Shown here piece by piece: positions 7,935 through 20,404 of a stretch of 29,268 nt of DNA. The notes under the pieces were generated by a model. That model saw nothing but the letters and a program-made list of their open reading frames with translations. It made no database searches and was not told the DNA's origin. The first letter of the stretch is position 1; each line of letters opens with the position of its first letter. The translations under genes and the position numbers were made by a program. The DNA comes from Patescibacteria group bacterium (GTDB taxonomy: Bacteria; Patescibacteriota; Saccharimonadia; Saccharimonadales; UBA10212): positions 1 through 29,268 of the forward strand of contig JBBTWK010000030.1 of assembly GCA_038062805.1 (NCBI GenBank), in the 5' to 3' direction.

Positions 7935-8483
7935 TTATTCTTGCTTTTCCAGATACCGCTTGAAGCTATCAACCCCCTGGACATCATTTTTTAGCACAGC
8001 ATCATAAATGACTACAGTTTCTATATCTTCGGGCAGTAAGCCATCGCGCCTTGCCACTTTCAGTTCAAGTATTTGTTCTTTTTGAGCGTCACTATAGCGA
8101 GAATACAGCTCTCTCGGAGGCAACATCTCGGCTAATTCACTTGGGGAAACCATCAATATATCTACTTTCCATCTATGACCCCTGAAATCCTGTTTTATGC
8201 AAAAGTAGGGTCTGGCAGGTACATTTGTCGACCAGTCGCAAAACATAATGCTATTCCACCAGCCATTATTTATAAGCGCAATCGTCATCTCATCGGCAAG
8301 TTTTCTGGTGGGCTTTTCAGTACTTACAAAGAAATCTATGTCAGAATCGAGCATTAAATCGTACACATAACTGCCAGTTGGGGTAACTTTGCCAAACTTT
8401 TCTAGCAGCTCTATTATTTTTGAGGATTCTACAAGAACAGTAGCGTCATCGTGCCAGCGTTTTGACTCTTTAAGTAAGTTCAT
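7935..8483 (-). CDS. Putative Pol-beta-superfamily nucleotidyltransferase
   Basis: TGSYVYDLMLDSDIDF (GS...DxD) and a later WKVDI strand carrying the third carboxylate. Confidence 0.65.
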   Translation of the reverse strand: MNLLKESKRWHDDATVLVESSKIIELLEKFGKVTPTGSYVYDLMLDSDIDFFVSTEKPTRKLADEMTIALINNGWWNSIMFCDWSTNVPARPYFCIKQDFRGHRWKVDILMVSPSELAEMLPPRELYSRYSDAQKEQILELKVARRDGLLPEDIETVVIYDAVLKNDVQGVDSFKRYLEKQE

Positions 8484-8497
8484 CTCATCATCATAAC

Positions 8498-8520
8498 AAA
8501 AACGACCAGCAAGGTCGTTT
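8498..8520 (-). terminator. Intrinsic terminator following tRNA-Lys 3' repeat copy 3
   Basis: AAACGACC-AGCAA-GGTCGTTT stem with a U-run on the minus strand. Confidence 0.6.
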
Positions 8521-8534
8521 AAGTATAAGTATCT

Positions 8535-8550
8535 TGGAGGGCCCAGTGGG
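8535..8550 (-). repeat. Exact 16-nt copy of the tRNA-Lys 3' end
   Basis: TGGAGGGCCCAGTGGG, identical to 8885-8900. Confidence 0.9.
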
Positions 8551-8681
8551 GTGAGCGCACATCTGCGCTCGTCCTCGGAGTAAACTTTTGTGGGCGAGCT
8601 TGATGACCGAACCCACGACTGGCATCTTCGCCTATGGCGAATCTACGTCGTGGAACCGGAAGCCCACAAGAACAACCACGC

Positions 8682-8705
8682 AAAAAGCCGACCACAAGGG
8701 TCGAC
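8682..8705 (-). terminator. Intrinsic terminator following tRNA-Lys 3' repeat copy 2
   Basis: GCCGACC-ACAAG-GGTCGAC stem next to an A5 run (U-run on the minus strand). Confidence 0.6.
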
Positions 8706-8713
8706 TCTTTGCG

Positions 8714-8735
8714 TGGAGGGCCCAGTGGGATTCGA
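8714..8735 (-). repeat. Exact 22-nt copy of the tRNA-Lys 3' end
   Basis: TGGAGGGCCCAGTGGGATTCGA, identical to 8885-8906. Confidence 0.92.
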
Positions 8736-8851
8736 GTTATTCTGCGGCTGCGCAAAATGCAAGCATTGCACGAGCCGGCCAAGCAAGGAAAACTCAAAAG
8801 TCCACCGGACTTTCTCGCCCTACGGGTTTGAATCCCCGAAACCATACCAAC

Positions 8852-8876
8852 AAAATACCCCATCACAAGGATGGGG
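8852..8876 (-). terminator. Intrinsic terminator of tRNA-Lys
   Basis: CCCCATC-ACAAG-GATGGGG stem with a minus-strand U-run, just 3' of the CCA. Confidence 0.7.
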
Positions 8877-8884
8877 CACTTTGT

Positions 8885-8961
8885 TGGAGGGCCCAGTGGG
8901 ATTCGAACCCACGACACGCGGCTTAAAAGGCCGCTGCTCTAACCAACTGAGCTATGGGCCC
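8885..8961 (-). tRNA. tRNA-Lys(UUU), CCA encoded
   Basis: Reverse complement GGGCCCA-TA-GCTC...GAGC-A-GCGGC-CTTTTAA-GCCGC...GTGGG-TTCGAAT-CCCAC-TGGGCCC-T-CCA, a full cloverleaf. Confidence 0.97.
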
Positions 8962-9211
8962 TCGTCGGAGTAAGCTACCAGCTTGCGACGACGAGCAATT
9001 AACTAGCGTTCTTTGCTCGTGTCTTCAGCTTCTCGCTACTCCTCCTCTTCAATTTTGCAAAATCTGCTACGCACGATTTCACAAAATTGGGTTAAGACCA
9101 ATGCTGCGTGAATGCAGCACGAAATAACACCTTACATTATCTGTTTTTTAGCCAAAAAGTCAAACACAAGCAGTTAATTTTTGGCGAGGGCTGTGACATT
9201 ATTGTCCCAAG

Positions 9212-16444: not shown

Positions 16445-17029
16445 ATGGATGACAGAATCGACGAAGCCTTTGGGGCGGTAAATCGGGCCAATTTTGTGCC
16501 CAGAGAGCTTCGTGGGTCGGTTGATATTGACGCACCGCTGCCGATCGGCTTTGGGCAGACCATTAGCCAGCCTTATACTGTTAGGTTAATGCTGCAATGG
16601 CTGGATCCGCAGCCCGGTGAGAAGATTTTAGACGTTGGTTCGGGCTCTGGCTGGACGACGGCGCTATTATCGCACTTGGTCGGCTCTAAGGGTCGAGTTT
16701 ATGCCGTAGAGCGAATCCCGGAGTTGGTGGAGTTTGGGCAGGAAAATTGTGAGCGGGCTGGAGTTAAAAATGCCCGGTTTTTTACGGCCGGCGATGAATT
16801 CGGTTTGCCCGATGAAGCGCCGTTTGACCGCATTTTAGTCAGTGCTTCGGCAGACAAGCTGCCGCAGGAACTGATTGATCAGCTAAAAGTAGGCGGCCCT
16901 TCGACAGGCTCAGGGCAGGCAAAAATGGTCATCCCGGTACATAACGATATTTTAGAAATCACCAAAAAATCGGATAAAGATTCGAATATCAAAAAACACC
17001 CTGGTTTCGTCTTCGTGCCATTGCTGTAA
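16445..17029 (+). CDS. pcm: Protein-L-isoaspartate O-methyltransferase
   Basis: PLPIGFGQTISQP, ILDVGSGSGW, VYAVER, APFDRILVSA and VFVPL. AGGAG SD upstream. Confidence 0.95.
   Translation: MDDRIDEAFGAVNRANFVPRELRGSVDIDAPLPIGFGQTISQPYTVRLMLQWLDPQPGEKILDVGSGSGWTTALLSHLVGSKGRVYAVERIPELVEFGQENCERAGVKNARFFTAGDEFGLPDEAPFDRILVSASADKLPQELIDQLKVGGPSTGSGQAKMVIPVHNDILEITKKSDKDSNIKKHPGFVFVPLL
16898..16921 (+). repeat. In-frame REP-like insertion in pcm encoding PSTGSGQA
   Basis: CCTTCGACAGGCTCAGGGCAGGCA interrupts the conserved QLxxGG-xxVIPV segment. Confidence 0.7.
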
Positions 17030-17063
17030 AACTAAACTTCTCATCTGTTATACTGGGCGTTGC

Positions 17064-17139
17064 GGGGGAGTAGCTCAGTGGTTAGAGCAGTCGGCTCATA
17101 ACCGATTGGTCGAAGGTTCAATTCCTTCCTCCCCCACCA
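17064..17139 (+). tRNA. tRNA with CAU anticodon, probably tRNA-Ile2 (lysidine)
   Basis: GGGGGAG-TA-GCTC-AGTGGTTA-GAGC-A-GTCGG-CTCATAA-CCGAT-TGGTC-GAAGG-TTCAATT-CCTTC-CTCCCCC-A-CCA. C29:G41 and the stem resemble Ile2 tRNAs; the identity is inferred. Confidence 0.9.
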
Positions 17140-17252
17140 CGTCACAACCAATATCAACCCCGCTCAAAATTTTGGCGATCAAGTAGCCAAAATTTAGCGG
17201 GGTCTTGTATTGTTGCTCCTTTTCCAATTTACGCAACTCCGCGCAAAACGGG
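17137..17252 (+). repeat. tRNA-linked ~116-nt double-hairpin element, copy A
   Basis: Starts at the tRNA CCA (CCACGTCACA) and contains a TTTTGGC...GCCAAAA hairpin. Its last 43 nt are 35/43 identical to the reverse complement of 18552-18594. Confidence 0.8.
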
Positions 17253-17308
17253 CTAGCTTCAAAAGGACGCCCGAAAAACAGAAGAGCCAACCGCGGTATA
17301 ATGTTTAT

Positions 17309-17764
17309 GTGCTTCAACAGATAAGAAATTTTTGGAAGTCAAAAAACCGGCAGCAATTTACCGATGTGCGCAACATCGGGCTGTATGTTTTTGCGGTTAT
17401 CGTACTGGCAATTACATGGAGTGGTGTAAAAACCCTCCAGATTAACTATGAACTGCAAAAACAAATCTCGACCTTAAAACAGCAAAATGAGGTATTAAAA
17501 CTGCAAAACGATAATACCGCCCTGCAGAACCAGTATTACCAAACTAACCAATATTTAGAGCTAGCAGCCCGACAGGATTTTGGTTTAGCCGCTCCCGGCG
17601 AAAAAATTTTGCTGATTTCTAAAGACGTAGCAATGAAATATGTTGATCCAAGCTTGAGCCCGCAAGCCAACTTCCAGAATTCGGTTGATAAACGCTCAAA
17701 ATACGCCAAAAACTTCCAGGCTTGGCGTGACTTTCTCCTCGGCCGCAAAGCCTCCCAGAATTAA
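17309..17764 (+). CDS. Septum formation initiator (FtsB/DivIC-like) protein
   Basis: One TM helix followed by a coiled coil and ELAARQDFGLAAPGEKI. The GTG start lies 6 nt after TATAAT; the upstream part of the listed ORF is repeat sequence. Confidence 0.8.
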   Translation: MLQQIRNFWKSKNRQQFTDVRNIGLYVFAVIVLAITWSGVKTLQINYELQKQISTLKQQNEVLKLQNDNTALQNQYYQTNQYLELAARQDFGLAAPGEKILLISKDVAMKYVDPSLSPQANFQNSVDKRSKYAKNFQAWRDFLLGRKASQN

Positions 17765-17780
17765 TAAAATCTCTTTGCGG

Positions 17781-18473
17781 CTAACCCCGTTTTGCACGGA
17801 GTTGCGTAAAAGGGAAAGTCGGTTTCGGGCCGCCATAACGCTGCTCGAAGGTAGGTTGAGCAACGACAGTCTCTAAAAGAGCTACTTTGCCTATCTCTTG
17901 ACCTTCGGGTGTAGTGTCGTATCTATAGAAATCTTCAAATGTCCGGATGGGAGGTCGGCTATAGTGTCCTTTAACATACACAATATCGATAGGAGAAACA
18001 GTATAGCCTTCTTGGGGTTTTAGACGCATTAGTATTTTCGGGTCGGCACCATCTGTGTAGTCGTCTGGCACTTCTTCGGGGATTTCTACGTCAAAGCCAT
18101 TGTTCCCAAAATGGTCTGCTAATGAACCCAAAATATGGTCACCACTGGTTTCGCGCCAATATCTCTTCGGTAACTTCTTTCGCCCTTGAGGATAAGCATT
18201 TTCGTGATTGTAATACCCACGTTCCCATCTGCCGCTGCCAACGATAAGAACGTCAACATCTGGGCGCTCACCCTCCTTTGTAACATAGCCGCCAATACCA
18301 TATACTCCGAAAATACCTCTATTGGTTGTACTATCATCTTCAAAACTTTTTGCTAACTCGCCAACTGTAGCGACAATGTGCTCTACGTTAGTTCGGTCTG
18401 TTGGTGAAAGCCTGTCTAAGAAAGATAAGGCTTCTGCTAGTTGTGCATCGCCCAGTCTATTTTCTATTGTCAT
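17781..18473 (-). CDS. Hypothetical protein with a nucleotidyltransferase-like motif, 230 aa
   Basis: VYGIGGYVTKEGERPDVDVLIV (G-G...DxD) and a later PIDIV. Strong AGGAG SD. Confidence 0.55.
   Translation of the reverse strand: MTIENRLGDAQLAEALSFLDRLSPTDRTNVEHIVATVGELAKSFEDDSTTNRGIFGVYGIGGYVTKEGERPDVDVLIVGSGRWERGYYNHENAYPQGRKKLPKRYWRETSGDHILGSLADHFGNNGFDVEIPEEVPDDYTDGADPKILMRLKPQEGYTVSPIDIVYVKGHYSRPPIRTFEDFYRYDTTPEGQEIGKVALLETVVAQPTFEQRYGGPKPTFPFTQLRAKRG
17786..17810 (-). repeat. Partial copy C of the tRNA-linked element
   Basis: CCCGTTTTGCACGGAGTTGCGTAAA, 24/25 identical to the reverse complement of 17228-17252. Confidence 0.85.
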
Positions 18474-18551
18474 AAATAACTCCTATAAATCCCTATTTTG
18501 GACTTTAGTGGCAAAAAAGCAAGCAGTAGCAAAATGCAGGTTTAGCTTTAC

Positions 18552-18689
18552 CCCGTTTCACGCGGAGCTGCGTGAAACGGAAGAGGAACAACAACGGTGA
18601 GCTCATTTGCCAATCAAAAAGAGCTTTGGCTATTTTGGGTTGGCCAGAGCTCTAGTTTGCTGTGACGTGGTAGCCGTAGTACATTCGAA
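18552..18689 (-). repeat. tRNA-linked element copy B, preceded by a degenerate tRNA 3' end
   Basis: Minus strand reads TTCGAATGTACTACGGCTA-CCA-CGTCACA...; includes the perfect 11-bp hairpin CCGTTTCACGC-GGAGCT-GCGTGAAACGG (18553-18580). Confidence 0.75.
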
Positions 18690-18815
18690 TTGGAACATTA
18701 TCCGTAAGGAGCTTGCTAGATGGAAGGCTCTATCTAGAGAAGGTAATCTGTTAACTTACTCTCCCAAGAGGAACTAGAACGATAATTTAGTCTTACAAAA
18801 TAAGAAACGAGCGGT

Positions 18816-19121
18816 TTACTGTTGTCCATGAGGCTGAGTTAGGTTTTGTATATGTACTTCCCCAAAAGCAGGGTACACAAATCTTACTAATGCACCAAAT
18901 TCACCCAAATTTGCTACGGCCTCAAGTCCTTCAATTATTTCAGGCTTTAACTCTGGTTTTAGAGCCATTTCTCCCAACTTGCCATTCCTAGTATCTTTCT
19001 TTACGGCTTGTACTTCTTCAACTAGAGTCGTGTTACCTACAAGCCTTGCGCCAACTTTTATGTACCACCCATCAAGCCTATTCTCCATAATAACTTCACC
19101 GTTTTCACCTGGCCTTAGCAT
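18816..19121 (-). CDS. Hypothetical protein, 101 aa
   Basis: AGGAG SD 5 nt upstream of the ATG. No recognised family. Confidence 0.7.
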   Translation of the reverse strand: MLRPGENGEVIMENRLDGWYIKVGARLVGNTTLVEEVQAVKKDTRNGKLGEMALKPELKPEIIEGLEAVANLGEFGALVRFVYPAFGEVHIQNLTQPHGQQ

Positions 19122-19240
19122 GATTGCTCCTAAACTATAATGCGCTATTTATATATGCCGTTTAATGAATACGCAAGCTTTAGCGAATAGGCCGAGCAGG
19201 ACTGGAACCAATTAACGGAGGTAATTGTAATCGTAAATCA

Positions 19241-19269
19241 AAAAGAGACTGGTTTTGGAACCAATCTCT
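19241..19269 (-). terminator. Intrinsic terminator of the initiator tRNA
   Basis: AGAGACTGGTT-TTGG-AACCAATCTCT stem with an adjacent A-run. Confidence 0.6.
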
Positions 19270-19284
19270 ATCTGTTATTCAATC

Positions 19285-19359
19285 TGGTAGCGGGGGCAGG
19301 ATTTGCACCTGCGACCTCGTGGTTATGAGCCACGCGAGCTACTACTGCTCCACCCCGCG
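19285..19359 (-). tRNA. Initiator tRNA-fMet(CAU)
   Basis: Reverse complement CGCGGGG-TG-GAGC-AGTAGTA-GCTC-G-CGTGG-CTCATAA-CCACG-AGGTC-GCAGG-TGCAAAT-CCTGC-CCCCGCT-A-CCA. The C1.U72 mismatch and A11:U24 are initiator hallmarks. Confidence 0.93.
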
Positions 19360-19522
19360 TCAAACTATGAGACAAACCTGCGGTTTTTCTCATCGAACCT
19401 GGCGAAATAAATTCGCCTCCGCCTACAGCGGACCGGTTCTGCTCTTTTCCCTAGAACAAAACAGGCAAGTCAACCAGTTATTCTAATCTGTTAGGGGTCA
19501 TTTGTCAATCTCTAAGGTAATG

Positions 19523-20327: not shown

Positions 20328-20404
20328 GCCAGGGTAGCTCAGTTGGTTAGAGCGCAGGACTCATAAGCCTGAGGTCGCGAGTTCAAATCTCGCCCCTGGT
20401 ACCA
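20328..20404 (+). tRNA. tRNA with CAU anticodon, probably elongator tRNA-Met
   Basis: GCCAGGG-TA-GCTC-AGTTGGTTA-GAGC-G-CAGGA-CTCATAA-GCCTG-AGGTC-GCGAG-TTCAAAT-CTCGC-CCCTGGT-A-CCA. The Met versus Ile2 assignment is inferred. Confidence 0.9.

Follow-up and report, generated by a model that had tools for sequence, protein, structure and literature searches.

In Escherichia coli, the tRNA-linked repeats, or RtT RNA, are structured non-coding units on tRNA genes whose mover is unknown and which end in a copy of the tRNA tail. Integron attC arrays combine long imperfect palindromes that have a strand bias with short cassettes, long terminal repeat (LTR) elements rely on tRNA-primed reverse transcription from primer-binding sites, and staphylococcal cassette chromosomes (SCC) are serine-recombinase islands comparable to those at ssrA in Dehalococcoides. 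The latter, the ssrA genomic islands (ssrA-GIs) with DsiB, are tandem, cis-mobilizable serine-recombinase islands (PMC3146451). CGTC-tagged palindromic repeats have an 8-9-bp stem, a 4-5-nt loop and a CCA-type tail, and sit for the most part downstream of coding regions (Di Nocera et al. 2013, PMC3733652). Here we compare with these systems a locus from a Patescibacteria group bacterium of the order Saccharimonadales (genome G000; 0.70 Mb, 91% complete). The window, that is, the whole stretch of 29,268 nt that was analysed, is contig C30 (JBBTWK010000030.1) of this genome, and the element in question is a sequence of about 116 nt found at the tRNA-Ile2 gene and near the tRNA-fMet gene, which the original prediction had read as an attC-like site or att scar. 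Patescibacteria are thought to carry few mobile elements, and the Saccharibacteria are tiny bacteria that live on other bacteria.

We found that the shared element is an uncatalogued structured module, inverted on tRNA CCA ends and apparently mobile. The locus very probably comprises two separate layers, this module and a cassette at tRNA-fMet; neither the module nor the fMet cassette array was described in the literature that we searched, the coverage of which was incomplete. The gene order is pcm, tRNA-Ile2, divIC, open reading frame (ORF) 230, ORF101, tRNA-fMet, an RRM gene, tRNA-eMet, gdh and tilS.

The two-hairpin module and its placement at RNA ends

The window holds the following module copies and the tRNA that carries the first of them; the Ile2 label is one that we take over from the original prediction and from known identity elements.

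17064-17139, plus strand: tRNA with CAT anticodon, presumably Ile2-type, with copy A fused to its CCA (ARAGORN, Rfam)
17140-17262, folding strand minus: copy A, two-hairpin module (covariance model, 127.9 bits)
17775-17817, plus strand: copy C, a remnant with the second hairpin and tail only
18545-18667, folding strand plus: copy B, a module of a second subtype (covariance model, 60.7 bits)
8963-9100, minus strand: 5'-leader-class module copy on base +1 of tRNA-Lys(TTT) (8885-8961, minus strand)

The observations that had drawn attention to the locus are confirmed, and their interpretation is partly supported. Copy A begins at the tRNA CCA (17137), and copy B, on the minus strand, begins at the CCA of a tRNA-like end (18668-18689). 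Both open with CCACGTCACA, their shared first 10 nt, and their terminal blocks are identical at 35 of 43 positions. Copy A consists of a long interrupted hairpin (~17141-17219), a linker, a second hairpin (17224-17251) and a short tail; copy B contains a perfect 11-bp hairpin (18553-18580); and the partial copy C, a second hairpin (17785-17817) with its tail, is real.

A, B and C all belong to one non-coding, two-hairpin module of about 115 nt. The module occurs in two geometries: in the 5' class it forms the precursor leader, its last base abutting tRNA base +1, and in the 3' class it is the reverse complement, beginning at the CCA. Copies A and B belong to the inverted 3' class and are the reverse complement of a tRNA 5'-leader module. 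Read on the folding strand, the module runs from a hairpin through a purine linker (AAAAGGAG or AGAGGAG) to a long hairpin that opens with a tandem G.A pair, followed by GACG(A/U). Both A and B fold far better than shuffled sequences (z about -5; 0 of 200 shuffles). They represent different subtypes, with a global alignment score of 0.52, and the long hairpin is thus common to them in shape and not in sequence. Compensatory changes are present at 22 of 34 pairs in an unfitted alignment and at all 34 in the fitted one, in which 92% of cells pair. The first hairpin unit measures 64-88 nt in nearly all copies, with TCCT or TGCT after the stem, and an unpaired terminal CGTC was found in 54 of 71 3' copies and in all 39 leaders counted, by a detector that itself required CGTC or CGCA. 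On the tRNA-sense strand A.C mismatches exceed G.U (102:46 and 44:26). It is the opposite strand that reaches the lower energy in 62/74 and 45/54 3' copies and, for leaders, in 35 of 39; together, these results favour folding of the strand opposite the tRNA. At the gathering score Rfam matched only tRNAs and offered no catalogued family for the module. A likeness to hairpin and theta ribozymes was considered and dropped because the loops are not common to the subfamilies.

The antisense PFxAELR frames of the element had been proposed as relics of a recombinase C-terminus. Copy lengths are spread evenly over the three classes modulo 3 (24/24/21), and the proposed frame is open in only 19 of 69 copies; the random lengths and mostly closed frame indicate that the peptide is a by-product of DNA similarity. 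Because the frames break and the pairs covary, the antisense "recombinase tail" is not real. The peptide was also absent from any longer protein in a protein search, a result that is weak alone.

A search with the terminal block retrieved copies from genomes and metagenomes, and a covariance model was then applied. For nearly all of the retrieved copies the start lies 82-89 nt upstream of the terminal block, at the CCA of a tRNA (Met, Leu, Val, Pro, Arg, Ser and Gly), and core genes mostly follow directly. Four of the five named-genome records with the element belong to Candidatus Saccharibacteria. With the covariance model, the module was found in 30 of 49 genomes of the family and 46 of 150 genomes of the order; its presence is patchy, even within a genus. 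The model, which was trained on one subfamily, found no copy outside the order in a 150-genome sample of the phylum, and phage, plasmid and IMG/VR collections gave no module match. Of the 78 copies in the family, 60 begin precisely at the CCA of a called tRNA or transfer-messenger RNA (tmRNA), with 27 anticodon types represented; elsewhere in the order, 28 of 54 copies do so at a called CCA. The other copies, judged by inspection, mostly come after 18-nt tRNA-end copies of another repeat family, truncated tRNAs or tRNA 5' ends. Genome-wide, the element is restricted to RNA-gene ends, and its junctions match mature ends: CCA+CG (n=66), CCA+TCG (n=4), and base +1 in the leaders. About 10 of the 35 called tRNA genes of this 0.7-Mb genome carry the module at a mature end, and a second-hairpin copy follows tRNA-Leu(TAA) on contig C6. 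A 14- or 10-nt duplicate of the tRNA tail was absent within 400 nt downstream of all 78 copies, one 9/10 repeat being seen at tRNA-eMet of the sister genome G001, and no recombinase or autonomous partner was found beside the module in about 110 flanks.

In look, the module is closest to the CGTC-tagged repeats, from which it differs in size and placement. It shares with them an unpaired CGTC at one end of a stem-loop, a non-coding nature and the lack of any dedicated transposase found (PMC3733652), but it is about 115 nt long, has two hairpins and a TCCT linker, and lies only at stable-RNA gene ends. Copies A and B resemble integron attC sites in their long imperfect palindrome, their strand bias and the short-cassette arrays nearby; unlike attC sites, they have no conserved R boxes, no IntI and not one site per cassette. 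Tested against the attC boxes (RYYYAAC / GTTRRRY), copy A reads TCACAAC and GTTGCTC, and those columns covary freely across the family. In this 91% complete genome the best IntI match (TIGR02249) scored 65 bits against a cut-off of 265, and there is one Xer-like tyrosine recombinase only. With the E. coli tRNA-linked repeats A and B have in common that they are structured units on tRNA genes, but they do not end in a tRNA-tail copy.

Other repeats and copies were noted at such ends. On contigs C56 (after tRNA-Asn) and C6 (after tRNA-Leu(TAA)) a TTCGAC hairpin family that resembles repetitive extragenic palindromes (REPs) also begins exactly at the CCA; on C6 this hairpin stands in place of the module's first hairpin, and on C56 the ORF after it looks GIY-YIG nuclease-like by eye. 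In the window, 8520-8890 holds two units ending in tRNA-Lys 3'-end copies, followed by a 182-aa ORF (7935-8483); this family differs from that of A and B, and module copies elsewhere often come after such tRNA-end copies. Two head-to-head module copies lie between two tRNA-Leu(CAA) 3' ends at a contig start (locus L189, 50-251; genome G033, contig C8), as either a real inverted duplication or an assembly artefact. Near 3456 on contig C32 and 5678 on contig C88, and at loci L112, L119, L159, L186, L187, L246, L248 and L262, copies adjoin apparent stable-RNA ends (tmRNA-like, RNase P-like or unknown); the genes behind the leader copies on C32 and C88 gave no Rfam or ARAGORN identification. Locus L093 (DATKKU010000035.1), in a genome labelled Candidatus Binatia, has the same element and downstream genes as the Saccharibacteria-type loci L111, L121 and L136, and its contig is therefore probably mis-binned.

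Leader and inverted copies, and a possible route of movement

Some covariance matches lie at tRNA 5' ends on the opposite strand, and in a survey 51 of 354 tRNA 5' flanks opened with the same tag. A loose architecture detector proved unspecific (128/1327 matches) and was replaced by a strict one, which missed copy A and gave 17 matches in this genome and none in the reversed genome. These matches comprise seven tRNA 5' ends (one at 8963), one Thr(GGT) 3' end, copy B, three sites of the same build and five that are apparently unrelated; the genome has at least seven leader copies. A promoter points into the folding strand in 17 of 37 leaders, versus none of 70 3' copies. Both classes share the tag and linker, and the second hairpin is present in 28 of 71 3' copies, with up to 97% identity. 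We also found crossovers between the classes: one copy at a 3' end is of the leader type (81% over 67 nt), and copies of the 3' type occur at 5' ends. Neither the inverted, CCA-fused class nor its tie to the leaders was found in the literature searched, of incomplete coverage. A leader that has been reverse-complemented and fused at a CCA cannot be the same functional unit; through the 3' class, what was an RNA of unknown function thus becomes a mobile-element question that can be tested. On contig C100 (7536-7790; L333), the stretch from a promoter to tRNA-Arg(TCG) contains two oppositely oriented copies, back to back, of which the outer begins right after the promoter.

Comparison of the copies strongly supports movement between tRNA genes. 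The nearest relative of copy A, at 90%, is the copy on tRNA-eMet of G001, a site that is filled in G001 and empty here; that the closest relative sits on another tRNA argues that copies move. Of 61 copies, 3 have their nearest neighbour on the same tRNA and 10 have it in the same genome; for 48 it is in neither. Same-genome pairs are only slightly more alike than others.

We tentatively propose, at somewhat less than an even chance, that the module moves by reverse-transcriptase end-joining. A leader would be freed as an RNA of about 120 nt by RNase P trimming, and a reverse transcriptase (RT) acting in trans would copy it from its 3' end. Priming by the CCA-3'OH of a mature tRNA, with the last U of the RNA pairing with the last A of the tRNA, would yield inverted 3' copies such as A and B; switching from the 5' end of a tRNA being copied would yield new leaders; and the tRNA part would guide homologous recombination into the gene. 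At both junction types, the joined DNA is the complement of the folded RNA from its 3' end. This is the outcome that tRNA-primed or template-switching reverse transcription would give: the CCA of a tRNA continued by the complement of a different RNA, or a cDNA that, on a single base pair, passes from a 5' end to a 3' end. Group II-type RTs switch end to end, starting at the acceptor RNA's 3' end on one base pair (bioRxiv 10.1101/792986). The module differs from an LTR system in having no 18-nt primer-binding site and no linked RT, and that comparison concerns only how it might work. In its fullest form, which we regard as possible and more doubtful, the proposal would make the module a gene-less RNA hitch-hiker: a tRNA-leader RNA, freed by RNase P, that a borrowed RT copies onto either mature end, 5' or 3', of any tRNA or tmRNA gene, much like a bacterial short interspersed element (SINE), with its target set by RNA ends and not by DNA sequence. 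The module with its proposed movement, taken together with the cassette layer described below, is our best explanation of the locus, and we lean slightly towards this account as a whole.

Several results weigh against this explanation. Same-tRNA pairs are slightly more alike than random ones (0.592 vs 0.558; permutation p about 0.01, with kin not independent), which suggests some vertical inheritance; the right end of the module is ragged; and the genomes compared held no clean empty/filled pair inside one species. No mobilising enzyme was found: RTs are present in 13 of 49 genomes of the family, none of the RT genes has the module beside it, and in the copy-rich genomes G001, G016 and G033 no RT was found. 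A promoter-bearing donor for the A subtype was not identified, most leaders end in A where the common 3' junction needs a donor ending in U, and the subfamilies are mostly class-specific. The genome studied here has two RT matches, on contigs C47 and C7, one of them with an internal stop.

The module might instead be a DNA element, like a REP or a miniature inverted-repeat transposable element (MITE), moved by a single-strand transposase (HUH, Y1/RAYT-type) that cuts beside tRNA-like stems on either strand. Consistent with this, the module shows no target duplication and has subterminal hairpins, as IS200/IS605-derived miniature elements do; its CGTC tag is like that of the CGTC-REPs (PMC3733652); and Y1 genes occur in 13 of 49 genomes, with three in this one. 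However, the module is without a Y1 transposase bounded by the same ends, none of 30 Y1 loci being flanked by it. On one strand its junction comes 4 nt beyond the acceptor stem and on the other 0-1 nt, which fits mature RNA ends and not one DNA geometry, and the strand with the target 5' of the element is the poorer-folding one. We consider such a transposon origin unlikely. Quite improbable, in our view, is a selected tRNA-processing or stabilising structure that spreads among tRNA genes, as leader and inverted trailer, through nothing but gene conversion and local inversion. The strong covariation, the position of leaders between promoter and +1, and the frequent flipping of tRNA genes around divIC would suit such a structure, but its presence is patchy even inside one genus, and the tRNA ends have only CCA or CC/GC in common, too little for gene conversion. 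In addition, the single flip examined carried the promoter along with the tRNA, 0 of 70 3' copies have the promoter that an in-place flip would leave, and few tRNAs carry both classes (6 of 108). An IS110/IS1111-derived element was rejected, PF02371 not being found in 49 genomes searched.

The original prediction held that the 116-nt element is an attC-like site or att scar, a recombinase 3'-end relic common to the Ile2 and fMet loci that stacks cassettes. Copy B does lie at a cassette junction, and relatives have serine recombinases pointing into tRNA ends, that of Ile2 included. However, the element stands alone at dozens of tRNAs, mostly next to core genes, and this strain alone has it before an att core (at 2 of 84 junctions, each being this strain's copy B). 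No recombinase match adjoins any copy, no module copy lies within 1.5 kb of the match in 21 recombinase loci, the frame and the attC boxes are not conserved, and there is no IntI. These data largely refute the attC/recombinase-scar reading, to which we give very little credence. In practice, the repeats need no longer be misread as att sites or recombinase fragments, and the order of insertion at tRNA-fMet becomes readable. RNA-end-guided retro-insertion, if true, would constitute a new route to sequence-independent yet base-precise targeting of tRNA genes in bacteria.

The cassette at tRNA-fMet and the probable history of copies B and C

Of the earlier proposal, one part stood: tRNA-fMet does have an att system that stacks cassettes. 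The 116-nt element in common is not the att or attC site of that system. The features of this layer, with the genes around it, are as follows.

17309-17764, plus strand: divIC/ftsL-like core gene, not cargo (Pfam PF04977)
17781-18473, minus strand: ORF230, Pol-beta-type nucleotidyltransferase-like accessory gene
18668-18674: TGGTAGC, the 7-bp core, a distal repeat of the tRNA-fMet terminal bases (from the sequence)
18675-18765, plus strand: conserved att arm of the cassette, reading VAVVHSNW..ELARW (52/251 genomes)
18816-19121, minus strand: ORF101, cassette cargo of unknown function
19197-19284, minus strand: tRNA-proximal cassette arm, with an intrinsic terminator at 19244-19269
19285-19359, minus strand: tRNA-fMet, CAT anticodon, the cassette target (ARAGORN, Rfam); in relatives, arrays begin at its 3' end

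A pattern for the tRNA-like end and the arm that follows it matched 52 of 251 genomes of the order, and its reversed control matched none. The matches form same-strand arrays that start from tRNA-fMet, with a spacing of 457-2799 nt and one to a few unrelated genes per unit. Here, the TGGTAGC core at 18668 and 19285 is a direct repeat of the target 3' end at both cassette ends, the att arm is single copy in the genome, and the terminator arm is 80-87% identical to arms before att cores in other genomes' arrays, several from other families. The distance from divIC to tRNA-fMet is about 45 nt in the same-genus G001 versus 1,520 nt here. Comparison thus shows the tRNA-like end beside B to be a junction of the tRNA-fMet cassette array, the enzyme presumably being a serine recombinase; in relatives, it is common for a serine recombinase to overlap a tRNA with its 3' end. 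Searching with a profile of the arm peptide brought up P0047 (95 aa, from a contig of 541 bp), a fragment whose first half is a recombinase C-terminus (39% over 46 aa of recombinase tail, E 1e-7) and whose second half is the arm. By this alignment, the true continuation of the recombinase tail in the joined form is the VHSNW arm, which lies on the core's far side from the element.

The simplest history is that a large serine recombinase inserted a one-gene cassette (ORF101 and two att arms) at the 7-bp tRNA-fMet end, an event that would have duplicated the core and pushed copy B about 610 bp from tRNA-fMet. Copy B is 88% alike to a copy on the fMet 3' end in another family (G098), and its subtype also follows fMet ends at loci L018, L020 and L117, which suggests that B once sat on the tRNA-fMet CCA and that the ORF101 cassette came between them. 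Copy C would be an older, truncated copy interrupted by ORF230: ORF230 reads through copy C to its stop, and its homologs end earlier and differently. The shape proposed for the island needs one qualification. The divIC gene, found in 54 of 61 genomes searched and unmentioned in the original prediction, separates A from C, and copy A therefore lies outside the fMet island.

As had been noted, ORF230 and ORF101 each have a Shine-Dalgarno site (AGGAG) upstream. Cargo content is not fixed among relatives. ORF230 is probably a Pol-beta-type nucleotidyltransferase: its GxGG...DVD motif is invariant in three homologs, and its Atlas feature matches to PF01909 clusters score 0.90-0.92. A Pfam search of ORF230 gave no match, its structure model is poor (predicted local distance difference test, pLDDT, 49) and matches to the nucleotidyltransferase fold are non-significant. 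ORF101 has just three other homologs, 75-80% identical, and has no known family; the two homologs with DNA to inspect are not att-bounded at a tRNA. Because homologs of ORF230 and ORF101 occur in other contexts without these sites, both genes are incidental passengers. The ORF101 cassette is recombinase-less.

The fMet cassette is like the ssrA-GIs in being stacked at a stable-RNA 3' end, in that some units are integrase-less, and in that the 3' end of the recombinase gene crosses the att site. It is unlike them in its tRNA-fMet target, its 7-bp core and its units of 0.5-2.8 kb with one to a few genes, and the A/B element is no part of it. Two findings count against the cassette part of our explanation: no fMet-linked full-length recombinase was present among loci from 54 genomes, and no clear excised circle or excision joint was seen in the contigs. 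A depth-2 contig from another sample joins 19274 to 18668 and may be such a circle or a relative's array junction. At loci L085, L090, L214-L234 and L316-L325 (Saccharimonadales), large serine recombinases extend over the 3' ends of many different tRNAs (Ile2, Arg, Asn, Ser, Gly, Asp, Glu, Lys, Pro and Tyr). In the genome studied here, contig C79 carries one serine recombinase with no tRNA nearby.

Further observations on the locus

A third tRNA with a CAT anticodon lies at 20328-20404. Around divIC, the orientation of the tRNA-Ile2 and tRNA-fMet genes changes from one relative to another, even inside the genus (16950-19400 compared with L002-L030), and in the flip pair formed by this genome and G001 promoter and leader turn together with the tRNA. 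Between the same two genomes, a Leu-Val-Phe tRNA cluster also appears inverted. A short palindromic repeat lies in frame within pcm (window 16898-16921).

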